64,000 bases of DNA from Naegleria gruberi (lineage: Eukaryota), in the NCBI GenBank assembly GCA_000004985.1, contig GG738851.1; one strand, written 5' to 3'. The position numbers and the translations under genes were made by a program. The notes beneath the pieces were generated by a model. That model was not told the DNA's origin. It was given only the letters and a program-made list of their open reading frames with translations, and made no database searches. Position 1 is the first letter of the stretch. Each line of letters starts with the position of its first letter. Shown in pieces: positions 2,515 through 63,457 of this stretch.

Positions 2515-4686
2515 ATGAAATTGTTGAGTGGGATCCTATCAAAAAATAACTCTTCTCACAATAGCAGATCAAATAATACATCGGTTACAGGTAGCCTTAA
2601 CTCAAATACACAATCAAGCTCATCGAGTGGAAGTAATTATAGTTGCATTTCGGGATCTATTTCCTCCAATACATCATCGAGTTGCAGTGTGCTCTCTTCA
2701 GTTGCCTCACTTTCATCATCAAGCATTTCAAAGACTAGGAAGGAACAACAATTATCATCATCGGCTGAATATTGCAATACGAGTATTTTAATCCAATCAC
2801 CTCCACTCTCTGCCAGAAAGACAAGCAATAAGTCCCAACCACAAAGCAACAACATTACAGCTACCACTCTTTCACCAACTCCTTCACAATCTTGCTCTTT
2901 CAGCTCTCCTAAAAAACAATCCAACAATTCTAGCAACAAGGAACCAAAGGATAATCATCCACCTACTGTGAACCAATCAACCTCCATAAATACGCCAGAG
3001 AGAAGTGACCCTCATCACCAACGTCAAGCAAGTGAGGATTTTCTGAATAGTCTTTCGTTTGCCCTACCTCAAATAGAATACGAAGAAGTCATGAAACAAG
3101 TTCAACAAAGGACAGTCATGATGTCAAACCAAAATGATAACATTACTGCAGAGAATATAGATGTAATGTCATCGGATGGTTACGACTTTGAATATTATAA
3201 TAAGGAAGAAGAAGAGAAGAAATTGAAAAAGAAACAATTGGCTGCCTCATCTTCAAAAAAGAAAGCCGAATCTAAACCACAACCATCAAGCACACCATCA
3301 ACTCCTGCATCAAACTCATTCAAATCACCAATTAAGAGTTCAACTCAACCAACAATTTCTCAGACTCCAACAAAGTCAAGTTCTTCTTCTGTAAAATCGA
3401 AACCAATTACACCTGCTGTAAATCAATCAACAGAGGCTCTTACAACTCTTTCTACGAGTAAGAGTAGACTTTCCCTTAAACCATCCACCATCAGAAACAA
3501 GATTAAACAGAAAGATTCCCCAAAACAGCAAAAAACCAGCCAAAGTAAATCTAAACCAATCATTTCTGAACCCCCAAAAGTGAATCCCAATAGGAAAGAA
3601 AGGAAAAACTCTGAGAAGAGTACAACTTCCTCAAAAAGTGGAAATAGTTCAATTGTAAATAATGCACCAAAAGTAAAGGATGAAGATGTCATTGCTGTAA
3701 TTGTGGATGATGATGACGAGGATATGAATGATTTGGAGCATGATTTGAGCAGTGCTCATGAACTCCATTCAACTGAAATGGTGGATGAAGATGAAGAGGA
3801 AGATGATGTAGACGAAGAGTCTTGCAATACCATGACCTCTCCTCGTACTCCTTGCTCTAAGAAGAGGAAGGCATTTGAAGAATTTGAAGATTCCCTAGCC
3901 TCTTCAAAAAAGAAGAAGGAAGACTCAATCATCTTGGATAGTGTCATTAAAAAAGTAATGGATATTTCAATACCAGATACACCAGCAATGGAAGAAGACA
4001 GTCCATCATGTGATAGCTCACTTTCCATTTCTCCTTCACTATCTTATAATTCTCAGTCAACTTGTGGAGAGCACTCAGAGTATTGCATTTCTCCACTTGA
4101 CTCAATAGCATTTGATGCCAAATTGTACAGCTCTCAATCCAATGTAGATATCAAAGAAGTCAATCAAAAAATAACCACTTTAACAAAAGTCATTGAGCAA
4201 AGAAATGCACAAATTTTACAACGAGATGAATATATTGCCAATCTCTCCAAGGAGAATAAGGAAATGAAAAAGTTCAAATCAATGATTCATAAACTAGATG
4301 ATGTTGGATTTGTGTTCTACATGAAGGCATCTGAATTGGTTTGTGAGGGATTGATGGCACGAGATCTCGACACAAAGGAATCACAAGAAATTATTCATGA
4401 TTCTCTCCAAAAGGGAATAAGGTACATGAGAGCCTCGGCCGAATTTGGAAATGTCGATGCCATGTTCGAATATGCAGAACTAATTCTAAGATATTCAAAA
4501 TCAAAGAAACATGAAGCAAAAGAATTCTTGCAAAAAGCAAGTGAAAAAGGACACAAGAAAGCAGGAGTGTTTTTGAAGAGTTTGGAAATGAAAGAAGAAA
4601 CCCAAAGATATGAAAAAAGTGTTGAACATGATCATTTGCTTCTCTATGGGCAAGAAACAACAAAAACCAAGTCAAAGAGAAAATAA
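2515..4686 (+). CDS. Ser-rich low-complexity protein with an acidic and coiled-coil middle region and two C-terminal Sel1-like (TPR-related) repeats
   Basis: ORF track 2428..4686 (TTG); first ATG at 2515. Long Ser/Thr/Asn tracts and an acidic block (VDDDDEDMND...DEDEEEDDVDEE). C-terminus ...GLMARDLDTKESQEIIHDSLQKGIRYMRASAEFGNVDAMFEYAELIL...EAKEFLQKASEKGHKKAGVFL resembles Sel1 repeats. Confidence 0.6.
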   Translation: MKLLSGILSKNNSSHNSRSNNTSVTGSLNSNTQSSSSSGSNYSCISGSISSNTSSSCSVLSSVASLSSSSISKTRKEQQLSSSAEYCNTSILIQSPPLSARKTSNKSQPQSNNITATTLSPTPSQSCSFSSPKKQSNNSSNKEPKDNHPPTVNQSTSINTPERSDPHHQRQASEDFLNSLSFALPQIEYEEVMKQVQQRTVMMSNQNDNITAENIDVMSSDGYDFEYYNKEEEEKKLKKKQLAASSSKKKAESKPQPSSTPSTPASNSFKSPIKSSTQPTISQTPTKSSSSSVKSKPITPAVNQSTEALTTLSTSKSRLSLKPSTIRNKIKQKDSPKQQKTSQSKSKPIISEPPKVNPNRKERKNSEKSTTSSKSGNSSIVNNAPKVKDEDVIAVIVDDDDEDMNDLEHDLSSAHELHSTEMVDEDEEEDDVDEESCNTMTSPRTPCSKKRKAFEEFEDSLASSKKKKEDSIILDSVIKKVMDISIPDTPAMEEDSPSCDSSLSISPSLSYNSQSTCGEHSEYCISPLDSIAFDAKLYSSQSNVDIKEVNQKITTLTKVIEQRNAQILQRDEYIANLSKENKEMKKFKSMIHKLDDVGFVFYMKASELVCEGLMARDLDTKESQEIIHDSLQKGIRYMRASAEFGNVDAMFEYAELILRYSKSKKHEAKEFLQKASEKGHKKAGVFLKSLEMKEETQRYEKSVEHDHLLLYGQETTKTKSKRK

Positions 4687-14133: not shown

Positions 14134-17100
14134 TTATTTAAGCATGTAATAAAATCTAGAACCAACTTGATGAATATATCTCAATTGAGGAATTACTACC
14201 ATTAAGAAAATTCCAACCACTGGAATGATAATGGTCAAGTAGCACATCACCTCAAGAGAAGTAGTGGCCAACAATGTAATGAAAATCTGAGAGGCAGCAC
14301 ATGCAACGCACAAAATACTCGTTCTCATGAGCCAATTCTTGTAATAACTACTTCGCATTATGAGCGCAAACAAGTAGAGAAACAATGTTAATACTTCTCC
14401 AATATAGAGTGGTCCAAAAGTGTAGCCAATACCCTCGAATGAAAATCTAGTGTCTGGATGGTTATTCTCCTTTCCAACATTTTCTTCATTCGCAGTATCT
14501 TGATGATCCAAAAAGGCGGAGAATGCAACCAAAAACCAAACAAGCAAGAAACTCATTGCAGCTCCGTATGCAAGCAAGAAGGGAAAGTTTCGTATAGAGA
14601 TGACCCTTAATTGTCTCTTCATGGCTTCAGTTAAATCGTATGAAATGTATTTTCTGAACAAGTAGACAATACTATCCCAAATTGCAATGACGAATAATAA
14701 TCCTGAAATTATTGCTGCAACAAAATAAATAAAACATGGAATTGCAAAAACTCCAAACCATCCACTCACTTCAAATTGAATCATTAAAAAATCTAAAAGT
14801 GTCAAAATCATGACTGGCACGATGAACATTATTCCAATCAAATGGTAAAAGAATGAATGTGAGGTCAATTTCATTTGCAAACGTTTCATGTAAAAGAGTG
14901 TCTTGTCAGCTCCCGTGAGGCCGATTGAATTTTCCTCATAGAATTCTCTTGCAGGAGAGGGAGGATTGATCCAACTCTTAATCCATGCGAGGCAAAGTTG
15001 GAATTCATCCTCATTTTGTCGGGAGGGGAGTAGAGCTTCTGTATCTGTATTTCTTGGTGAGGTCATGTTATCAGGGTTGGAATGAGATGAACTCAACAAC
15101 TTGTTAATTCTCCTGTACAGAACAAAACTGGTAATCCAAACAGCAGTCCAAGTTGGTAAATAAATTACTAGAGACCAGACCCAAAATATCAAAGATGGTG
15201 TATAGTACATTGTTGAGGAAGAAGCAATAACTGGAATGGTAGTAAATATGTACATGAATAAGAAGGTGGTGGCTACAATGGTGCTAAGCATTTCTGGAAA
15301 GGTATTTCTTAGGAGGAATTTAATATTTTCCTTCTTTTCTGGTTTGTCATTCTCAACTATTTTCAGATTCACCAGTCTTTCGTATTCAAATTGTTGAATC
15401 TTTTTCATTTCAATGAATGTATCCTTGAAGAAGCGATACTTTTTAGAGTGAATGTTCAAATCTTTCAATTCTGGATCTTGTAATGATTTTCCATTTCTCT
15501 TCTTTTTACGTGTATTGGTAATTCTATTAGAAGAGAGGAGGTTGGATGGATCCTCTTCTTCCTCCAAACCATCATCATCGAAAATGTTTCTAATATCAAC
15601 CTTGGTTGACATTCTCTTTTGTTTCTTTCTTCTCTTCTTGGCACTATCAATAATATCTTGATTGATAGTGTGAGGAGATGGAATAACCTCAAATTCATCC
15701 TCTACATCTTGATTTTCAGCCAAAGGAGTGGTGGGTACAGCCTCACCAGGTGGTGTAACGGTATTTTGAGGTGCTTCCAATAATTGATTCTCTCCCTCTT
15801 CAGCAATATTGAAATCATCAGGTGGAGAATCTGTACTTTCCTTAATATCGTGACCGAGGAGAGTGTTCGATATTTTGTTTTGTGAAATGTGATGTTCCAA
15901 TTTTTCTGTCAGCGTGTCTGTGGTAGCAGTAATTTTTCTATCGATGGAATTCATAGTGGCCTTTACTGTATTTCTTACAGCACCAGCCCTCTTAGAAATA
16001 GCAGAGGTAAGTTTGGAGCTGAATTGATTGAGATGCTCCAGAGAAAATTGCTTATTGTTAGCCTGAACGACAGCGTCCATAAAAGTATCCTTATCTGGAA
16101 GTAAATAGTCACATAATACTTGAAGCTTCTTACGAATTTCCTCACGTCTTTGTGGTGAAGTGTAGTATGAGGATATCAACTTGTTCAGATCATTCTTATC
16201 AAAAGCTCTAAAGCTCACTGAAAATCTACTCAGATGGAGAAAGAGCATAATAGTTGCCAAGCTCCACATGTCATTATTACAAGAGGCAATGTGCCACTTT
16301 TTACATACTAGACTGATGTTTGCATTTCCTTGGTGAATCCAAATGTGTCTTCTCTTGGCATGATTTACCATAAACCTCTCACATCTATTCTTTAACTTGA
16401 TTTGCTCTTTAATCTTTTGCTTTTCCTTCTTTTTCTGTTCCTTTGAATAGTTGAGAACTTTTTTGGCTCCTTGTTTCACTGTATTGGCAGTAGAATCCTC
16501 CAATAAAATAGAAGAGTCATCCTTAGATTGACCAGAATCTGAGAAATTTTTAGAGAGAAGCAAGGAAATTGAGGGAACTGAAATACTTCTCTTTAGATTT
16601 TTAATTCTCTCAGTTGCACTCCCTACAATCCTATCAGTGTCCACAAACTTTTTATGTCCTAATCCAGCACTCAACCAATCAGAGGTTAATCCGTCATCCT
16701 CTTCAATTTCAAATTCTGAATAATACTTTTTACTATTCCTATTTTCACTTGAATTTTTTCTTTTAGGTATTGTCGGAGTTGTCAAGCTGCCACTCTTAGA
16801 CCCTTCCATCACTAAATCCTCCAATGAATGTGGAGCATTTCGTAACTTATTCCTAGCAGTATTGAGTGCAACCTCTGGATCCTCATCAAACTCCTCATCA
16901 TCCGATTCGGAATCCTCTTGTTCCTCCTTTTCATTTAATTGGTCACACAAGAATGAAAATATATGTGTCAATAATTTAACACTAAGATTATTGATATGTG
17001 GCATGTGTTCTGACAGATCCTTACTACTATCTTGTCTAATTTTGTTCAATTTTTTAACTCCAATCATTGGTATTTGAATGTGTGAAGATTCATAAACAGA

Positions 17101-17514
17101 GGAGGTTCCTATTGATGATGGGTGCTCCTCAATAATAATTTCCTCCGAGTGCATTTGTTGTTGCTGATGATTAATCCTTCCATTCGTTTGATTAGGATAA
17201 ATGAGTGTTGGTCTTGATCGAGCAGTAATTGGTGAAGAGAAAGGAATAGCATACGGATTATAATTACCAACCAATTCCTTCTCATCCATTGGTGTATCAA
17301 CCCAACCAATCTCCACTTGTTCATTCACTCCTCTAGAAGCACCACTAGAATTATTCAAACTGTTCGTACTACTTCCATTCCCTGTAAAGTTATTGTTAGA
17401 TAATTGAAGATGAGGAGGATATTTCTTTTTAATATTGAGAGTAAGTATTTGATCCTCTCCAACACCACTACCACCACTATTATTACTAGTTGTTGTATGA
17501 TGATTTTGTTCCAT
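14134..17514 (-). CDS. Large (1126 aa) protein with a low-complexity N-terminal half, a split F-box-like motif, and a C-terminal polytopic membrane domain (>=8 predicted TM helices)
   Basis: Single long ORF in the track; ATG at 17514. F-box-like N-part LSVKLLTHIFSFLCDQ and, about 230 aa later, the C-part NISLVCKKWHIASCNNDMW. C-terminal 400 aa contain repeated hydrophobic helices (MLSTIVATTFLFMYIFTTIPVIA..., IGIMFIVPVMILTLLDFLMIQF..., FGVFAIPCFIYFVAAIISGLLFVIAIW..., LLAYGAAMSFLLVWFLVAFSAF...). Confidence 0.6.
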   Translation of the reverse strand: MEQNHHTTTSNNSGGSGVGEDQILTLNIKKKYPPHLQLSNNNFTGNGSSTNSLNNSSGASRGVNEQVEIGWVDTPMDEKELVGNYNPYAIPFSSPITARSRPTLIYPNQTNGRINHQQQQMHSEEIIIEEHPSSIGTSSVYESSHIQIPMIGVKKLNKIRQDSSKDLSEHMPHINNLSVKLLTHIFSFLCDQLNEKEEQEDSESDDEEFDEDPEVALNTARNKLRNAPHSLEDLVMEGSKSGSLTTPTIPKRKNSSENRNSKKYYSEFEIEEDDGLTSDWLSAGLGHKKFVDTDRIVGSATERIKNLKRSISVPSISLLLSKNFSDSGQSKDDSSILLEDSTANTVKQGAKKVLNYSKEQKKKEKQKIKEQIKLKNRCERFMVNHAKRRHIWIHQGNANISLVCKKWHIASCNNDMWSLATIMLFLHLSRFSVSFRAFDKNDLNKLISSYYTSPQRREEIRKKLQVLCDYLLPDKDTFMDAVVQANNKQFSLEHLNQFSSKLTSAISKRAGAVRNTVKATMNSIDRKITATTDTLTEKLEHHISQNKISNTLLGHDIKESTDSPPDDFNIAEEGENQLLEAPQNTVTPPGEAVPTTPLAENQDVEDEFEVIPSPHTINQDIIDSAKKRRKKQKRMSTKVDIRNIFDDDGLEEEEDPSNLLSSNRITNTRKKKRNGKSLQDPELKDLNIHSKKYRFFKDTFIEMKKIQQFEYERLVNLKIVENDKPEKKENIKFLLRNTFPEMLSTIVATTFLFMYIFTTIPVIASSSTMYYTPSLIFWVWSLVIYLPTWTAVWITSFVLYRRINKLLSSSHSNPDNMTSPRNTDTEALLPSRQNEDEFQLCLAWIKSWINPPSPAREFYEENSIGLTGADKTLFYMKRLQMKLTSHSFFYHLIGIMFIVPVMILTLLDFLMIQFEVSGWFGVFAIPCFIYFVAAIISGLLFVIAIWDSIVYLFRKYISYDLTEAMKRQLRVISIRNFPFLLAYGAAMSFLLVWFLVAFSAFLDHQDTANEENVGKENNHPDTRFSFEGIGYTFGPLYIGEVLTLFLYLFALIMRSSYYKNWLMRTSILCVACAASQIFITLLATTSLEVMCYLTIIIPVVGIFLMVVIPQLRYIHQVGSRFYYMLK

Positions 17515-24910: not shown

Positions 24911-25984
24911 ATGAGTTGTAATAAGCATAATATTGAGGACAACACAAATTCTCCTTCAAATTTAGTTTGGCAATCTATTACAAATACCTGCTCCGATACA
25001 GAGAATTTACCATCGGGAGGGGGTATTGCTCATTGTTGTGTCGATCATGAGAGAGTGGCTTTTTTCGGAGGGTTGGGATTGAGGCGATATAATGAATTAT
25101 ATATTTTCAATGTCAATACAAATGAATGGAAAAAAGCCTCTCTTGAAAATGCACCATCAAAGAGGTGTAAAAGTTCAATGTGTTGCTACATAACTGGAAA
25201 CAAGCATAAATTGATAATATTTGGAGGATGGACGAGTGAGGGAAAGACAAATGATATGCATGAGTATTGTATTGAGGATGACAAGTGGAAAGAAGTAAAA
25301 TATGCAAATAATTCAGTTCCTCCTGCAAGAAGTGCTCATCACTGTGCAATCATTGGAAAACATATGATTATTTATGCAGGAATTGGAGCTAAAAAGTTCG
25401 GTGACATGTACAGATTTCATTTGGAAAAGGTATGATTAATTAATATTCGATAATCATAACATGTTTGAATTGTGGTTTTAACCAGAGAGAATGGGAAGAA
25501 GTAATTCAAGTGAATGCTCCACTGCCAAGAAGTTCCTATGGAGGTTTAATAGTATTTAACAAGAATCAAAATCTATTGACCTCATGTGGTTTAGGATGTG
25601 GAAGATACAATGACACTCTATTATTTGATATTCCATCAAGAACTTGGAAGCCCTTAACTTATAAAGGAACTATTCCAACAAAGAGAGGTAGACACTCATG
25701 TGTTCTTGATGATTCCAACAATTGTGTCTATTTGTGGGGAGGATTTAGTAAGTTGTTATTATTGCAAAATTATAGTATTAAACTTGGCAGCTGGAACTGA
25801 GAGATCCAATGAATGTTTTCGTTTCAATCTCCCAACGTATGAATGGTCAATGATAAAGCAAACTAACCCTCCAAACAAACGAGAGAACCAATGCCTTTTC
25901 ATCCTAAACCAAAAACTCTATCTTTATGGTGGCTGGAATGGCTCTGATTTTTATCATGATATGTTCTGTGCAAATCTAGTATAA
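24911..25984 (+). CDS. Kelch-repeat (beta-propeller) protein. Three exons: 24911..25429, 25486..25747, 25791..25984.
   Basis: Three ORF-track segments joined by introns: GTATGA at 25430 / CCAG at 25484-85, and GTAAGT at 25748 / GCAG at 25789-90. Phases are consistent. Repeated Kelch motifs (FGGLGLRRYNELYIFN..W, IIFGGWTSEGKTNDMHEY...W, YLWGGF..., LYLYGGWNGSDFYHDMF). Confidence 0.7.
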
Positions 25985-52008: not shown

Positions 52009-53188
52009 TTATTCCTTCTTCTTATGTTCCTTCTTCTTTTCTGGAACATACTTGTCAATCTTAATTGGAGAACAAACGGTTGTCTTCTTATCACAAACAG
52101 TTCTTTCACCATACTTGACACATTTCTTGGTACCACCAACAAATTGATACTTGGCACAGACCTTATAACCTGGTGACTTTTTAACACACTTCTTCCAGTG
52201 CTTCTTCTTAATACATCTACTCTTTACGTGCTTATATTGAGTACAATAGTTGACTGCCTTATATTCAGCACAGAATTTACGTTCCTTATACTTTTCACAA
52301 ACTCTGACCTTCTTTCTAGCATCACAGAATTGATTTGGAACCCATTGAGTACAGAAACGAGCCTTCTTTTGAGCAGCACAGAACTTTCTATCAATGAATT
52401 TAACACACTTTTTAGTGTAACCCTTCTTGAGACTGAATTTGACCTTATTGTATCTGATACACTTCTTGGTCTTGGTATATTTGGCACAAATCTTGTGACA
52501 TTTTTGTTTACAGAAAGCATGATAATAAGTATCAGTCCATCCCTTGTAATGTTTTCCTGCAACTTTCTTCCATCCCTTTTGACATTTACAGACTTGCTTG
52601 TAAGCGGCACAGTAAGCATCGAGTTTATATTCAGCACATCTCTTCTTGTAATGATAGCCAACCTTTGGAACCTTGATATACTTGGCACAGACATGTGACT
52701 TGTCATATTTGGTACAGACAAAGTTATAGGCATATTGTTTACAGGAATTATTCTTTCCCTTATGAATACAAGCATCTTTCCAAGCACTCTTAACACAATA
52801 CTTTTCAGTTTTATGTTTAGCACAAACTTGCTTATAACCTTTGAAAAATGTTACAAAAATTTTGTAAAATTTCAAACTCTAACTTACCATGACCCAAACA
52901 CAACTTTCTATCCTTGGAATATTTATCACACTTGCTGAATTTCTTATATTTCAAACATTTTCCTTTACCAACCAACTTCCAATCACAACATTCCTTCTTG
53001 GTACCAACCCATTCATAATCAGAACACTTTCCCTTGACAGTCTTGTAGTGAGTACACTTTTGGAAGCAATACTTTTGATGATCAGCATAACTGTCAACTT
53101 GTTGAGGTTTGGATTCACCTGCAGTGACTGCTGCAATGAGCATGAAGAGCAATGCGCTTGCAATTAGAACAGATTTGAAACTATTCAT
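52009..53188 (-). CDS. Secreted Cys/Lys/Tyr-rich repeat protein (~376 aa, signal peptide MNSFKSVLIASALLFMLIAAVTAGES). Two exons: 52888..53188 and 52009..52838.
   Basis: Minus ORFs 52832..53242 and 52009..52875 are joined by a 49-nt intron (GTAAGT at plus 52887..52882; CAAAG acceptor at plus 52840..52839; phase 1): ...KDRKLCLGH|G|YKQVCAKHKTEKYC.... About 45 Cys in degenerate repeats such as KKCVKFIDRKFCAAQKKARFCTQWVPNQFCDARKKVRVCEKYKERKFCAEYKAVNYCTQYKHVKSRC. Codon use is heavily AAG/TTC/TAC/TGT (high-expression type). The overlapping ORFs 52198..52698(+) and 52224..52823(-) are frame artefacts of this gene. Confidence 0.7.
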
Positions 53189-53871: not shown

Positions 53872-56357
53872 NNNNNNNNNNNNNNNNNNNNNNNNNNNNN
53901 NNNNNNNNNNNNNNNNNNNNNNNNNNNNNNNNNNNNNNNNNNNNNNNNNNNNNNNNNNNNNNNNNNNNNNNNNNNNNNNNNNNNNNNNNNNNNNNNNNNN
54001 NNNNNNNNNNNNNNNNNNNNNNNNNNNNNNNNNNNNNNNNNNNNNNNNNNNNNNNNNNNNNNNNNNNNNNNNNNNNNNNNNNNNNNNNNNNNNNNNNNNN
54101 NNNNNNNNNNNNNNNNNNNNNNNNNNNNNNNNNNNNNNNNNNNNNNNNNNNNNNNNNNNNNNNNNNNNNNNNNNNNNNNNNNNNNNNNNNNNNNNNNNNN
54201 NNNNNNNNNNNNNNNNNNNNNNNNNNNNNNNNNNNNNNNNNNNNNNNNNNNNNNNNNNNNNNNNNNNNNNNNNNNNNNNNNNNNNNNNNNNNNNNNNNNN
54301 NNNNNNNNNNNNNNNNNNNNNNNNNNNNNNNNNNNNNNNNNNNNNNNNNNNNNNNNNNNNNNNNNNNNNNNNNNNNNNNNNNNNNNNNNNNNNNNNNNNN
54401 NNNNNNNNNNNNNNNNNNNNNNNNNNNNNNNNNNNNNNNNNNNNNNNNNNNNNNNNNNNNNNNNNNNNNNNNNNNNNNNNNNNNNNNNNNNNNNNNNNNN
54501 NNNNNNNNNNNNNNNNNNNNNNNNNNNNNNNNNNNNNNNNNNNNNNNNNNNNNNNNNNNNNNNNNNNNNNNNNNNNNNNNNNNNNNNNNNNNNNNNNNNN
54601 NNNNNNNNNNNNNNNNNNNNNNNNNNNNNNNNNNNNNNNNNNNNNNNNNNNNNNNNNNNNNNNNNNNNNNNNNNNNNNNNNNNNNNNNNNNNNNNNNNNN
54701 NNNNNNNNNNNNNNNNNNNNNNNNNNNNNNNNNNNNNNNNNNNNNNNNNNNNNNNNNNNNNNNNNNNNNNNNNNNNNNNNNNNNNNNNNNNNNNNNNNNN
54801 NNNNNNNNNNNNNNNNNNNNNNNNNNNNNNNNNNNNNNNNNNNNNNNNNNNNNNNNNNNNNNNNNNNNNNNNNNNNNNNNNNNNNNNNNNNNNNNNNNNN
54901 NNNNNNNNNNNNNNNNNNNNNNNNNNNNNNNNNNNNNNNNNNNNNNNNNNNNNNNNNNNNNNNNNNNNNNNNNNNNNNNNNNNNNNNNNNNNNNNNNNNN
55001 NNNNNNNNNNNNNNNNNNNNNNNNNNNNNNNNNNNNNNNNNNNNNNNNNNNNNNNNNNNNNNNNNNNNNNNNNNNNNNNNNNNNNNNNNNNNNNNNNNNN
55101 NNNNNNNNNNNNNNNNNNNNNNNNNNNNNNNNNNNNNNNNNNNNNNNNNNNNNNNNNNNNNNNNNNNNNNNNNNNNNNNNNNNNNNNNNNNNNNNNNNNN
55201 NNNNNNNNNNNNNNNNNNNNNNNNNNNNNNNNNNNNNNNNNNNNNNNNNNNNNNNNNNNNNNNNNNNNNNNNNNNNNNNNNNNNNNNNNNNNNNNNNNNN
55301 NNNNNNNNNNNNNNNNNNNNNNNNNNNNNNNNNNNNNNNNNNNNNNNNNNNNNNNNNNNNNNNNNNNNNNNNNNNNNNNNNNNNNNNNNNNNNNNNNNNN
55401 NNNNNNNNNNNNNNNNNNNNNNNNNNNNNNNNNNNNNNNNNNNNNNNNNNNNNNNNNNNNNNNNNNNNNNNNNNNNNNNNNNNNNNNNNNNNNNNNNNNN
55501 NNNNNNNNNNNNNNNNNNNNNNNNNNNNNNNNNNNNNNNNNNNNNNNNNNNNNNNNNNNNNNNNNNNNNNNNNNNNNNNNNNNNNNNNNNNNNNNNNNNN
55601 NNNNNNNNNNNNNNNNNNNNNNNNNNNNNNNNNNNNNNNNNNNNNNNNNNNNNNNNNNNNNNNNNNNNNNNNNNNNNNNNNNNNNNNNNNNNNNNNNNNN
55701 NNNNNNNNNNNNNNNNNNNNNNNNNNNNNNNNNNNNNNNNNNNNNNNNNNNNNNNNNNNNNNNNNNNNNNNNNNNNNNNNNNNNNNNNNNNNNNNNNNNN
55801 NNNNNNNNNNNNNNNNNNNNNNNNNNNNNNNNNNNNNNNNNNNNNNNNNNNNNNNNNNNNNNNNNNNNNNNNNNNNNNNNNNNNNNNNNNNNNNNNNNNN
55901 NNNNNNNNNNNNNNNNNNNNNNNNNNNNNNNNNNNNNNNNNNNNNNNNNNNNNNNNNNNNNNNNNNNNNNNNNNNNNNNNNNNNNNNNNNNNNNNNNNNN
56001 NNNNNNNNNNNNNNNNNNNNNNNNNNNNNNNNNNNNNNNNNNNNNNNNNNNNNNNNNNNNNNNNNNNNNNNNNNNNNNNNNNNNNNNNNNNNNNNNNNNN
56101 NNNNNNNNNNNNNNNNNNNNNNNNNNNNNNNNNNNNNNNNNNNNNNNNNNNNNNNNNNNNNNNNNNNNNNNNNNNNNNNNNNNNNNNNNNNNNNNNNNNN
56201 NNNNNNNNNNNNNNNNNNNNNNNNNNNNNNNNNNNNNNNNNNNNNNNNNNNNNNNNNNNNNNNNNNNNNNNNNNNNNNNNNNNNNNNNNNNNNNNNNNNN
56301 NNNNNNNNNNNNNNNNNNNNNNNNNNNNNNNNNNNNNNNNNNNNNNNNNNNNNNNNN
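53872..56357. other. Assembly gap: 2486 consecutive N
   Basis: Run of n characters from 53872 to 56357; the ORFs reported across it (for example 53786..56401) are artefacts. Confidence 1.
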
Positions 56358-58733: not shown

Positions 58734-58804
58734 CGGCGTATGATGCAGAGGTAGCATGTTGGACTCTGAATCCAAATACGCAGGTTCGATTCCTGCTACG
58801 CTGG
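58734..58804 (+). tRNA. tRNA-Gln (anticodon CUG)
   Basis: Cloverleaf folded by hand. Acceptor CGGCGTA pairs with TACGCTG (one G-U). D-arm ATGC-AGAGGTA-GCAT. Anticodon stem TTGGA/TCCAA with loop CTCTGAA (anticodon CTG). 4-nt variable loop. T-arm GCAGG-TTCGATT-CCTGC. Box A/B-like internal promoter elements. T5 terminator 7 nt downstream. Confidence 0.8.
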
Positions 58805-58820: not shown

Positions 58821-59298
58821 AGACTTCCATCTTTTAAATCTTTGCATATAGTTGTTTATCTATCAAAATCTCAAATATCACCTTCTATCTCTAAATATCC
58901 ATTGAGAATGAGCTGTTCTAAAGAATCCAAAATATTGTTAGATTATTTTTTTCTTGCATCGAAGCAACAAGTCTATTTTGCCGACTCATTGATAATTTTT
59001 TTGGATCGCTGAGTTTCAATGATAGCATTTCTAAGGTTGGAGACAGGTTTGTGATTGGTACGGTTGCACAAGACCCATCCATTATATATGGATTTGAAGT
59101 ACTATATTTCAGATCTTTCATTGTGGCAGCATTTTTCCACAGTGAATCTGTAGTTTCACCCTTGAGCACCTTATTTATCATGGCTCGTGCCATAATCTAT
59201 TCAGATTCTCATAGGTTATATAAATTATTTGGAGTTCATTAAAAAAAAATGTCTCCTAAAATCTCAACCTATAATGATGATCACTCACACGTCCACTG

Positions 59299-60435
59299 TT
59301 GGACGCATTTAATGATGATGTGTTACGATTAATTTTATCATTTCTTCATCAAGCCGATTTATTACAATTGGAAATTGTTTCTAAAGGATTGAGAATTTGT
59401 CAGCTTTGTTCCGAAGATCAATATTGGAAGGAATTTTGTTTGGATCATGTTCGGATGATGAAGAAGGAATGTCAAGAATTTAATAATCTATTTTATAAAG
59501 GGAGTGGTGGATCGAGAGAAATTCGACATTTATTGCAAAAGTATGAGCAATTCCTGATATTGGAATGTGATTTTAAAAAACATTTTGTAGAAGTGTGGAG
59601 AATGATTGAAAATCTTGTTGAACAAGATCATGCGAGAGTTATTAGACGAATTGATCAATTGGAACAAGTGAAGAGCAAACAACCATTTATTGATCTGTCT
59701 GAAATTAGAAAGTATACACTGAAAGATTATTCAAAAAAGGATTTACCAAGTTATAAAATTACACAAATTGGTAGGTATTAGTCGAAATTTATTAGAAAGG
59801 AATTATGATGATTATTTTCAATAATAATTAGGTGATGGAGCTATTGGAAAAACGTGTCTCTTTATCAGAATGGCCTTAAACACCTTTCCAGAGGACTATG
59901 TTCCAACAGTATTCGATAATTATAGTGCCAATTTTATTTGTCAAGACATGACATTCAATCTCTCCCTTTTTGATACATCTGGTGCAGATGGTATGTTTTC
60001 ATGATTCAGATTTTTCGTCATATTTTGGATTTTATCACCATTTAAAGAGTATGTACAAGGATCATACATGGTCCTGATGTATTATAGAGATACAAGTTTA
60101 TTCCTTTTGAGTTTAGTTGTCTTTCTGTTCGGTCATTGGAGAATATTATTGACAAGTGGATTTCTTTAATTAGAGGTCAAAATCCTAGTACACCAATAGC
60201 TCTCGTATGTACAAAAATCGATGTGAGGAATAATAGCAAAGAGTGTAAACGTCAACTAAGAACTAGACTTACCAAACCATTAACATATGAAATTGGTGAA
60301 TCATTAGCAAAGAAATTAGGATGTATTGCTTATTTCGAAACAAGTGCATTGACCAGTGAAGGAATGGATTATTTTCCGAAGGATATCATCAAGGCATATC
60401 TTAAAAAGAGAAGGAAGGATTGCATATTACAGTAA
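59299..60435 (+). CDS. F-box domain fused to an atypical Rho-family small GTPase (catalytic Gln absent, C-terminal CAAX box CILQ). Three exons: 59299..59770, 59832..59990, 60048..60435, with a -1 frame discontinuity near 60097. The 5' start is unresolved.
   Basis: ORF 59299..59781 encodes an F-box (FNDDVLRLILSFLHQADLLQLEIVSKGLRICQLCSEDQYWKEFC). The donor G|GTAGGT (59771) and acceptor AG (59830-31) give ...SYKITQIG|DGAIGKTCLFIRMALNTFPEDYVPTVFDNYSANF..., recreating the Rho P-loop (K.VVVGDGAVGKTCL) across the intron. Second intron GTATGT 59991 / AAAG 60046-47. ORF 60136..60435 supplies ...FENIIDKW...PIALVCTKIDVRNN...YFETSALT...KKRRKDCILQ*. Switch II reads DTSGADG, not DTAGQE. Confidence 0.6.
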
Positions 60436-60569: not shown

Positions 60570-60642
60570 GCTGGCGTAGCTCAGTCGGTAGAGCGTTGGT
60601 CTAATAAGCCATTGGTCGCCGGTTCGATCCCGTCCGTCAGCA
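60570..60642 (+). tRNA. tRNA-Ile (anticodon AAU); stems carry two mismatches, so possibly a slightly degenerate copy
   Basis: Acceptor GCTGGCG pairs with CGTCAGC (one G-U), followed by discriminator A. D-arm GCTC-AGTCGGTA-GAGC (box A). Anticodon stem TTGGT/GCCAT (one T-T mismatch) with loop CTAATAA (anticodon AAT). T-arm GCCGG-TTCGATC-CCGTC (box B; one C-T mismatch). TTTT at 60647..60650. The track's minus-strand ORF 60555..60791 is just this tRNA read as protein. Confidence 0.7.
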
Positions 60643-60650: not shown

Positions 60651-61225
60651 AGGTTTGGATAACAACTTCATAACAAATATTATAAATAAAGAGCAAAGTT
60701 CCCAAAATGAATAAATATTGAAGTTGCCCAGTAGATGCATGAACACAACTCTGCGCCATTGTCTTTTGAGACTGAGGAGAAAACAGTTCATTCTATATTG
60801 TGAATGTTATCCTACACGAAAGGAAAGGATTATTATTGAAGAATTATTCAAATAAAAGTTTCTTATAAAAATATGCAAAAGAATTCATCTCATCAGGATA
60901 TGGTGAGCGAGGACTTCTTGTAAATCCTTTCTCCCCATTCCCAACTACTTTACCAGTAGTAAGATCTCCTCAGGGAGATCACTTGACTTGGTGGTCTGTT
61001 GTTCCATTTAATGGTAACTATTTGCAATTCTCAATATAATTAACTATGAACCATAGTGTTGGAATGGAGAAAAGAGAAAATATATTTGTTATTGTGGTTT
61101 TATTGGTTTCTAAATTATTCAAAATGTTTCAATAGCGAAATTAAGACTTCAAAACTGATGGTTTTAAAAATATATGTTGGTAAATTTAAGTAAAAATTTA
61201 ATTTTACTTGCTGTCCATGTTCTTT

Positions 61226-63457
61226 TTACCAAGATAAAAAGATAGCAATCTTGGCTCTTGATGTTCCAATTATACCTTGATTTTGTAAACCGTACTCTGA
61301 GGAAAAGTAGAGAATTGGTCCCTTCTTTCTTTCCACTCGATCCTTCTCACTTGTATTATTAGCTAGAGGTGGTAAAGTATAGGCAAATACATAGTTATTT
61401 CCTGAAAAGATTTGGGGCAGTGGCGGCAGAATGACTTCACCAATCAATCTCTTTTCCTCCTTTTGAAATGCCTTCTTTTCTTTGAGAAGGATTTTAATTT
61501 GATCGAACATGATAGCATAGCAAACATCTGGATTGGCATCTGGACCAGTAATATCACTATTCAGTAATTATTAAATTCCATAAATTATTCCAAAAATTGA
61601 AAAGTATTCCAAATAAATCTTGAGTCATTAAAGTTAATAGAGATACATACTATTCGAAAATCTCGTTAAATTTAGGGTTCTTACTCTTAATAACCTTAGT
61701 TTTACACTTGTCGTCGTTAAACCATAGAGAAATATACACATCCGATAAGAATGGAATATCTTCCACACTTTCCAATTTTACAATTAGTTTCTTTGGTGGA
61801 AGAGGTTGAAATTCATTGCTCGATCTAAATTTCCATCCCAGCTTTGGTTTGTAATGAATTCCTCCCACGATTTGTCTCCCAAAATTGTTCTTTCTATTAT
61901 TTACAATTGTATTAAATCTACACAATTCCTTTGCATTATCTTCTCCATATGTCAAATCCAAAATACTCAATGTCATTTTGTTTGAGAAGGGCACTCTCTT
62001 GATGATTTTAGTTTCTCCCTTTCTCTTTTGAATTTGTTGCTTGAGGAAGAATTCAGGTGATGTGAATTCAACAAAGAAAATTACATAGTGGAATCTTTCA
62101 TCGGTGAGGGTTTGATACTTGTCCTGTTTTCCTTTTTTCAAATTTAACAATGCAATTTCCTCCTGAACTGTTGCCTTCTTTGATGAAGTCGTCGATTGTT
62201 CATCTCCTGATCCATCATTTGATGTGTTATCAGTTGGTTTTTCCTCTGCATCCTTTGTTCGTGTATCTAGGAATGAAATACTTTCGAATGCAGAAATTTC
62301 ATCCAATTTTAATCCTTTCTTCTTCAGGGTCTTTTCATGCTTGGGAATGGAAGCAATACTGTGAAATGTTCTTGGTCCATTACTTTGATCGGAGGCAAAA
62401 TAACAAATTGGAGCTCCAAAACTAGAATATGCCACTGCATACATTGTGTATGGCACATCCACTTCAATGGTTTCCTCCTTTGTTGTGTGTGATTTTGCTG
62501 ACTCTTTCACTTCTCTAGAAATTGAATCCTCTCTCGCTAATTCATCATAGAAACCTGTCATGTTTTCATCATCATTATCATCATTATAATTTTAAAGAGA
62601 AATATTCGATAAATATTATAATCCGATTATTGTGTTAATATTCAATTATTAATTTGTCAAACGGATCATCACTTACCATAATCATCATTATCGAAAAACT
62701 TTTGTTTCGTCTTCATTCTATGATTATTAGCCGAATCTTCTTCTTGTGCTGTTCTAGTATGTCTCAGCACTGACCAAGCTCTTTCATTTTCCATCTCCTT
62801 TTCAACAGCTGTCTTTTCATATCTCAGTTTTACTGCTAGTTTTGTGCATTTCGAAATATCAAAATCCTTGTTCAGAGTCAAAGTCTGTCCTTTCCCATTC
62901 GTTGAAACTATTCTCGAAATGGCCATTGGCACTTCATCTTCCTCCTGTTCATCAAGTTGAGTTGATGAAGTCGATTGTTTCTTACTCTTTTCCAAACTTT
63001 CTTTTTTAATATTTACACCATACAATTGTTTAACCTGTTGTTCTGGATCTTCATCCGATTCTTCATCCGAATCAATATCATCATCATTATCATCATGTTT
63101 TACTTGAGTAAAATCATTCTGAGTCAATAATCCACTGAAAAAACTCTTCACTCCATCAAAAAGAGAACCTGTTGTTGTTGTAGCACCACCAGAAAAATCA
63201 TTCATATTTCCATTAGCAGCACCACCACCACCACCAGAATTTGATGATGAATAATTAATTTCTGATTGATTGGCTGACCAAGGTTGATTCGGAGGAGGAG
63301 GAAAAGATAATATTTGATTATTAGGATCGTATGGATTGTATTGATGAGAGGGATGAGAATGATGATGATTGAAAGATTGAGCATGTTGTTGTTGAGGTGG
63401 TTGATTGTTCCCGCCGCCGCTTCCTTGTGGATCGTAGAAGAAGGTGTTGTGTTGCAT
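61226..63457 (-). CDS. C2 domain protein (~671 aa) with a Gln/Asn/Gly/Pro-rich, acidic N-terminal region. Three exons: 62677..63457, 61651..62554, 61226..61556.
   Basis: Three minus ORFs in the track are joined by two introns. Intron 1: GTAAGT at plus 62676..62671 directly after ...DNDDYG; ACAG acceptor at plus 62558..62555; phase 1, giving ...DYG|G|FYDELARED.... Intron 2: GTATGT at plus 61650..61645; AATAG acceptor at plus 61561..61557; phase 2. The C2 signature spans the last two exons: ...IVKLESVEDIPFLSDVYISLWFNDDKCKTKVIKSKNPKFNEIFE|YDITGPDANPDVCYAIMFDQ.... Confidence 0.7.

Follow-up and report, generated by a model that had tools for sequence, protein, structure and literature searches.

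An F-box-Rac locus of Naegleria gruberi NEG-M, most likely a recently inactivated pseudogene

The 64,000-nucleotide stretch of Naegleria gruberi contig GG738851.1 (assembly GCA_000004985.1) that we analysed, hereafter the window, carries near its end a locus in which an F-box-like region precedes a Rho/Rac-like G domain. We assign this locus to the Naegleria-specific family of F-box-Rac (Rho-family) genes, as represented in N. gruberi NEG-M, and consider it most likely a recently inactivated pseudogene. Its reading frame is interrupted twice, by a 38-nucleotide (nt) insertion ahead of the F-box-like region and by a 1-nt deletion in the G domain, and as assembled the locus cannot encode the full protein. 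When the 38 nt are removed and one base is added, a complete open reading frame (ORF) of 343 amino acids (aa) runs from the ATG at 59249. An earlier note on this DNA had taken the combination of F-box and Rho domain to be undescribed. That claim fails: both the architecture and this exact locus have been published (Herman et al. 2021), and the F-box/small-GTPase fusion TbFRP is an older precedent. The features of the locus, from 5' to 3', are:

59249..59281 (+): probable original start with codons 1-11 (MSPKISTYNDD), no longer in frame with the remainder of the gene
59282..59319 (+): frame-breaking 38-nt insertion, 29 unique nt followed by a second AATGATGAT copy
59281/59299-59770 (+): exon 1 ORF, F-box-like, the open frame upstream of the donor at 59771
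59314..59442 (+): F-box-like motif (FNDDVLRLILSFLHQADLLQLEIVSKGLRICQLCSEDQYW), from sub-threshold Pfam matches, the family profile and the label of Herman et al.
59443..59749 (+): family-specific helical linker of ~100 aa with a DFKxxLxE motif, conserved with Naegleria paralogues
59750..59770 (+): end of exon 1, covering G-domain beta1 (YKITQI) and base 1 of the Gly codon in the P-loop
59771..59831 (+): intron 1, 61 nt, GTAGGT...TTAG, phase 1, restoring GDGAIGKT
59832..59990 (+): exon 2, with P-loop GDGAIGKT, switch I YVPTVFDNYSAN and DTSGA (Ala codon at 59984-86)
59991..60047 (+): intron 2, 57 nt, GTATGT...AAAG, phase 1, with a paralogue intron at the equal position and phase
60048..60435 (+): exon 3, with a degenerate switch II, beta4 to alpha5, Rho insert, TKID, SAL, KKRRK and CILQ; it holds the 1-nt deletion
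60112..60115 (+): site of the 1-nt deletion, GAGTTT-AGTTGT against GAGTTTCAGTTGT (Ser-Phe-Ser-Cys) in a paralogue

Exon structure, domains and family

The unspliced ORF at 59299-59781 ends in ...KDLPSYKITQIGRY followed by a stop (KITQIGRY and stop). As had been proposed, it can be joined in phase 1 to the AG at 59830-31: donor G/GTAGGT (59770/59771) and acceptor TTAG/G (59831/59832) give the junction YKITQIGDGAIGKTCL and the product YKITQIGDGAIGKTCLF, and the P-loop or G1 motif is assembled across the intron. At intron 2, donor G/GTATGT (59990/59991) and acceptor AAAG/A (60047/60048) lead into DTSGAD-EYVQGSYMVLMYYRDTS (DTSGAD-EYVQGSYMVL). From the earlier reading 'DTSGADG-EYVQ' the second splice can be kept and the Gly cannot, the split codon having been counted twice; the spliced codon is g+ag, i.e. 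Glu. With the Pfam Ras profile the acceptor at 60047/60048 scores 105.7 bits, compared with 101.6 bits for that at 60059/60060. The former is also favoured because EYVQ corresponds to a micro-exon, DVDQ, of a paralogue, and 60047, not the 60059 of the published model, is probably the last base of intron 2. The other introns of the window start with GTAAGT or GTATGT and span about 45-130 nt, a style of which introns 1 and 2 are typical. Exon 3 closes with the CAAX box CILQ at 60421-32 and the stop TAA at 60433-35. Beyond ~60112 the Rho-like reading is found only in another frame, as FSCLSVRSLENIIDKW...TKID...ETSAL...KKRRKDCILQ.

Comparison with paralogous sequences strongly supports a single gene comprising both the F-box and the Rho part, spliced as described above, in agreement with the earlier proposal. 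The nearest paralogue is XP_002678060, of which a metagenome contig in the European Nucleotide Archive (ENA; sample ERZ929261), here called L003, holds a close counterpart. L003 reads ...YKIIQIG/gtaagt...aaaag/GTGATCAAGCTGTGGGAAAG, with a phase 1 intron in the same P-loop Gly codon, and its second phase 1 intron follows DTAIHE, at the position of intron 2. The one-gene structure is supported since both introns lie at the same positions and in the same phases, and since annotated Naegleria proteins carry both parts in a single polypeptide. L003 further contains a 10-nt micro-exon, ATGTGGATCA (DVDQ, at 2998-3007), inside switch II, and a third intron; the window locus has neither, its EYVQ segment being fused to the next exon. 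Protein identity between the window locus and its closest paralogue is about 37-38%. That an F-box protein simply stops at 59779-81 and is followed by an unrelated Rho gene or gene fragment appears hardly credible, even though the unspliced ORF does stop at 59781. The Rho exons by themselves lack beta1 and the first P-loop Gly, both of which exon 1 alone supplies; the paralogue intron sits in that same Gly codon; and the annotated paralogues and proteins of the orthologous family hold both parts in one chain.

The match to the G domain lies well outside chance expectation. Pfam Ras (PF00071) matches the whole conceptual protein with E=1.2e-29 and the G domain alone with E=2.4e-30 (105.7 bits over positions 1-158 of the 162 in the profile), and the best whole-protein database matches are Rac/Rho proteins at 38-46% identity. 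The Rho motifs GDGAIGKT (across intron 1), YVPTVFDNY, DTSG, TKID and SAL are kept; TVFDNYSAN, TKID, SAL and the CAAX box CILQ, the hallmarks named at first sight, can all be read in the sequence. DVRNNSKECKRQLRTRLTKP aligns with the Rac insert region, and the C-terminus is KKRRKDCILQ. By the CaaX rule, a Q at the X position favours farnesyltransferase, so KKRRK and CILQ predict farnesylation and membrane attachment. The codon equivalent to Gln61 is indeed GCA (Ala), at 59984-86, and switch II reads DTSGADEYVQGSYMVLMYY instead of the canonical DTAGQEDYDRLRPLSY, with Ala at 61 and 2-3 additional residues. Several paralogues also lack Gln61, the residue at this position varying among paralogues between Q, P, H, S and V, and one has Ile for Gly60. 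Part of the family is thus atypical independently of pseudogenisation. As the loss of Gln61 is real, reduced GTPase activity may fairly be inferred by analogy.

As for the N-terminal half, the Pfam/HMMER search that had been suggested bears out the Ras domain fully and the F-box in part, its matches being present and under the gathering cut-offs. F-box-like (E=5e-4) and F-box (E=0.014) are the sole N-terminal Pfam matches of the conceptual protein. When six upstream open codons (from 59281) are included, F-box-like PF12937 reaches 22.7 bits and E=8e-5 (cut-off 24.3), and F-box PF00646 scores 18.0 bits in this copy (cut-off 20.5). At the family level, nine out of 14 N-terminal regions from homologues give a hit to F-box or F-box-like at E<0.01 (best E=3e-6), and the family N-terminal profile matches human FBXO3 (E=2.8e-6), then more weakly FBXW7 and FBXL5. 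In an AlphaFold2 model derived from the family alignment the chain is helical throughout, beginning with three helices (residues 12-19, 24-37 and 44-72), the number expected for an F-box; the mean predicted local distance difference test score (pLDDT) is 67.6. The AlphaFold model from the single N-terminal sequence (pLDDT 45.6) was unusable and was discarded. This segment is labelled F-box by Herman et al. 2021 (PMC8296547, Table S8).

When the N-terminal 163 residues served as query in an exhaustive HMMER search, 26 proteins were retrieved, several of them matching residues 9-163. All those inspected come from Naegleria or Naegleria-like organisms and have either F-box, linker and Rho or Kelch, F-box and Rho. 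In the family layout a conserved linker, ~100 aa long, connects an F-box to a Rho domain that ends in CxxQ, and some members have an N-terminal Kelch propeller. In N. gruberi the family includes XP_002680373 (339 aa, 'rho family small GTPase'), XP_002678060 and the Kelch+F-box+Rho protein XP_002672610 (700 aa). N. fowleri has XP_044568862 (731 aa) and XP_044569419 (734 aa), both annotated 'F-box domain-containing protein', and N. lovaniensis has XP_044553212 (376 aa, ending in CILQ like the window locus), XP_044555926 and XP_044543062. The window locus shares with these proteins the domain order, the F-box motif LNDDIxRxILSFL, the linker motif (D/N)FKxxLxE, the Rho domain and the C-terminal CxxQ, and the two intron positions with L003. 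It differs from them in lacking an in-frame start, in carrying the 1-nt deletion, and in its longer switch II with Ala at the Gln61 position. In an alignment with nine relatives (eight family members and a canonical N. fowleri Rac) its identity ranges from 28 to 39%.

A word-indexed search with the whole protein had retrieved generic Rho/Rac proteins only (at most 46% identity), leaving the N-terminal half uncovered and missing the family; its profile version returned two proteins, and the family emerged only from the exhaustive HMMER search. When family proteins were compared with the window by tblastn, exon 1, exon 2 and the sequence from 60112 onward were matched in the expected frames, and no Kelch exons were found upstream of the locus within the window. 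Kelch matches at 24977-25797 were rejected as part of the locus, as they belong to another gene. That gene, at 24911-25800 (NAEGRDRAFT_63741 plus a downstream exon), encodes Kelch repeats with a weak match to the Kelch halves of the Kelch-F-box-Rac paralogues; neither an F-box nor a Rho part lies close to it.

No other additional domain occurs as often as the F-box on the Rab, Rho, Ran and Galpha GTPases of Naegleria (Herman et al. 2021, BMC Biol 19:142, PMC8296547, Additional file 4; see also Additional file 10), and these fusions were read as pointing 'to GTPase-dependent ubiquitination' (PMC8296547). At least 11 N. gruberi Rac rows of Table S8 are flagged F-box (PMC8296547). One row of the N. 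gruberi sheet, Rac / SLTRPLLDAFNDDVLRLILSFL...KKRRKDCILQ with a stop / ACER01000078.1 (marked with two asterisks) / F-box, is this locus (PMC8296547). It is a newly created model without Met that uses the 60060 acceptor and contains the same frame fix, LFLLS/FSCLS (PMC8296547).

Two frame disruptions and coding status

At the 5' end, the earlier observation that no in-frame ATG precedes the F-box, and that the ATG at 59249 lies in another frame, is borne out; the stops TAA, TGA and TGA lie at 59270-59278. No ATG reaches the F-box frame, with or without an intron. The ATG at 59249 has an A-rich context (aaaaaaaaATG) like verified starts in the window, and the segment 59249..59281 that it opens ends in AATGATGAT, encoding the conserved family motif N-D-D. 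This 9-mer is found at 59273-81, where it encodes N-D-D in the frame of ATG 59249, and again at 59311-19, where it does so in the F-box frame. Counting both strands, it occurs only 10 times in the window, where 3.3 occurrences would be expected. The 29 nt between the two copies are unique in the window and have a G+C content of 52%, compared with 30% for exon 1. Without 59282-59319 the sequence reads MSPKISTYNDDVLRLILSFL..., ATG 59249 is in frame with ...VLRLILSFL, and the result resembles paralogue N-termini such as MSLSMLNDDIYRLVLSFL. No GT..AG fits the 38-nt segment at any repeat register, and so it is not an intron.

The second lesion lies in exon 3. The earlier note had called for a frame correction near 60097; the break is real, and its position is different, a 1-nt deletion at 60114/60115. 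In the DNA alignment with L003, GTTATTCCTTTTGAGTTT-AGTTGT here stands against GTTATTCCTTTTGAGTTTCAGTTGT, a single base being absent between 60114 and 60115, and 24 nt identical to L003 surround the missing base (window 60091-60120, L003 3085-3109). The two frames overlap open only at 60088-60167, and all the tblastn high-scoring segment pairs of family proteins resume at 60112. A frameshift placed near 60097 was rejected, with 97.7 bits compared with 105.7 for one at 60112-15 and in conflict with the paralogue DNA alignment. Gene conversion might explain such a stretch of 24 identical nt despite ~37% protein identity, as might an exceptionally strong constraint on the sequence that encodes beta4.

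We also enumerated all GT..AG pairs for a splice that might rescue the 3' frame. None with a consensus donor restores it, the donors being GTTTTC, GTACAA, GTCCTG and others, all non-consensus. Two single-intron solutions use the donor GTTTTC. The first keeps FSCLS and cuts the bulk of switch II together with part of beta4, with the Pfam Ras score falling to 79.9 bits; in the second the rest of beta4 is lost too. The 39 'third intron' solutions have non-consensus donors throughout and remove beta4 and/or alpha3. All were discarded.

It is possible, if rather unlikely, that the gene is intact and functional, the breaks being assembly or base-calling errors or marking a defective allele of a heterozygous locus; its product would then be a farnesylated, GTPase-impaired F-box-Rac protein. 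The retention of all family-invariant residues without internal stops speaks for this, as do the published curation without a pseudogene mark, the scaffold gap ~2.9 kb away and the T run that adjoins the 1-nt lesion. Against it, two independent frame disruptions lie within ~850 nt, and the missing base is no homopolymer miscount, provided that the ancestral codon was TTC like that of the paralogue. Neither a spliced nor an unspliced product has an identical or near-identical counterpart in large protein collections. In particular, no protein identical to any part of the locus occurs in a 5.8-billion-cluster collection (RefSeq proteome, Logan/ENA assemblies). The 38-nt insertion is beyond what a base-calling error can produce, which favours a real and recent inactivation.

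A shorter product might instead start at the internal Met-Met (MMKKECQ..., ~59455), the first in-frame ATG of exon 1; it would lack the F-box and be a Rac preceded by a helical extension alone. We consider this very improbable: with the deletion at 60114/60115 the G domain would still break off after beta4, and the region upstream of Met-Met was coding, given its conservation, as an F-box, in the paralogues.

Several observations nevertheless weigh against a recently inactivated F-box-Rac pseudogene, the reading that we prefer. Every invariant column of the alignment with nine relatives is retained and the exons have no internal in-frame stops, so that either the inactivation is very recent or the lesions are artefacts. 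The 'putative pseudogene?' column of Table S8 is blank in the row of this locus (PMC8296547). The 5' lesion could be a single-base error within 59282-59298 on top of an older in-frame insertion, and assembly quality may be lower near the scaffold gap. No second sequence of the locus came from the N. gruberi-like ENA contig L001, which stops short of it (see below), or from a degenerate-codon scan of JGI metagenome contigs. Finally, this copy scores weakly as an F-box, under the Pfam cut-off, and the assignment finds its support at the family level. Foldseek returned no match with E<1 in the PDB for the family-alignment AlphaFold2 model, and the F-box assignment consequently depends on sequence profiles. 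On the preferred reading, the inactivation most likely arose through birth-and-death turnover of an expanded F-box-Rac family. Such dynamics have been reported for the divergent Rab-like GTPase subgroups of Naegleria, and a pseudogene fits that picture (PMC8296547).

Surroundings of the locus

The window has a G+C content of 33.2% and its ORFs are long and intron-poor. Six of them match RefSeq proteins of N. gruberi NEG-M, all from a single 693,645-bp record, with full-length identity, among them the aspartate aminotransferase XP_002681137 (36125-37555) and NAEGRDRAFT_78544 (14134-17514). The DNA is therefore that of a heterolobosean and not of a dictyostelid. The F-box-Rac locus is flanked by two tRNA genes:

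58734-58804 (+): tRNA-Gln(CTG), upstream
60570-60642 (+): tRNA-Ile(AAT), downstream

The scaffold gap, a 2,486-nt N run at 53872-56357, is located ~2.9 kb upstream of the locus and breaks up an apparent minus-strand gene. Directly upstream of the locus, an ATG-initiated antisense ORF of 91 aa (58918-59193, minus strand) has no identical protein on record. Farther away, at 52009-52875 on the minus strand, a 288-aa ORF is rich in Lys, Cys and Tyr with a repetitive C-x-K-Y pattern; further long ORFs in other frames on both strands of this region suggest a compositionally biased repeat gene.

The ENA sample ERZ929261 (run ERR1078381, PRJEB11402) is a public metagenome with DNA of a close N. gruberi relative. 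The N. gruberi-like ENA contig L001 covers window 60669-63415 at 96.6% identity and with 29 gap openings; it aligns as far as 60669 and does not extend past ~60610, inside the tRNA-Ile gene. A Logan contig, L002, is 99.8% identical.

Proposed mechanism and related systems

The reconstructed 343-aa product would consist of a short leader, the F-box, the helical linker of ~100 aa, the Rac-like G domain, a polybasic stretch and CILQ. In an intact protein or in the paralogues, the predicted F-box may dock onto Skp1-Cul1-Rbx1 to form a Skp1-Cul1-F-box (SCF) complex. The G domain is predicted to bind nucleotide and Rho effectors or regulators, as expected from its conserved P-loop, textbook switch I (YVPTVFDNYSAN), G4 and G5. 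With Ala at Gln61 and a longer, degenerate switch II, both intrinsic hydrolysis and hydrolysis stimulated by a GTPase-activating protein would be poor, by analogy with Ras/Rho Q61 mutants, Rnd and RhoH. KKRRK and CILQ would provide for farnesylation and membrane binding. Either the G domain might present partners to SCF, or SCF might control the stability of the GTPase itself, as has been discussed for RhoBTB and TbFRP.

For this copy the mechanism is moot unless the lesions are artefacts, and the two frame-disrupting lesions make an active, GTPase-dead SCF adaptor unlikely at this locus. It is tempting to speculate that the lesions are artefactual or confined to one allele, and that this copy and its intact paralogues are farnesylated Rac-like proteins locked in one nucleotide state, whose switch I brings Rho effectors or regulators to a membrane SCF (Skp1-Cul1); we regard this as unlikely. 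If true, it would be a Cul1-based counterpart of RhoBTB, which is in print as a suggestion only.

RhoBTB proteins, found in metazoa, in Dictyostelium (RacA) and also in Naegleria, similarly combine an atypical Rho G domain with a cullin-RING adaptor module and are possible self-regulating substrate receptors. In RhoBTB, however, the Rho domain is N-terminal and followed by tandem BTB domains (Cul3), whereas in the window locus an F-box of the Cul1/Skp1 type precedes Rho, and the protein has a CAAX box and ends directly after the G domain. No BTB domain was matched by Pfam in the conceptual protein. Rnd and RhoH likewise have a substitution at the Gln61 position in a recognisable Rho domain with a CAAX box, and Rnd proteins are farnesylated. 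Unlike the F-box-Rac proteins, they are stand-alone small GTPases, and the window locus keeps Gly12.

TbFRP, a FYVE-F-box-Ras-like GTPase of Euglenozoa, is an earlier F-box/small-GTPase fusion, of which its authors found no N. gruberi orthologue (PMC3593210). It resembles the window locus in having an F-box N-terminal to a small-GTPase domain, in belonging to a discobid protist and in its proposed link to ubiquitin-dependent turnover. It differs by its FYVE domain, matched by Pfam nowhere in the conceptual protein, and by its Rab-like G domain, that of the window locus being Rho/Rac-like.

What is new here are two defined lesions, owing to which a pseudogene annotation is probably warranted, and the end of intron 2, probably at 60047 and not at 60059. 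As both the architecture and the locus had already been published, this locus adds little to the question of how GTPases and SCF are connected. That question concerns the family as a whole: the Naegleria F-box-GTPase fusions suggest that small-GTPase signalling is coupled directly to SCF ubiquitination, and the intact family members might be membrane-anchored SCF substrate receptors, or GTPases whose turnover is controlled by SCF.

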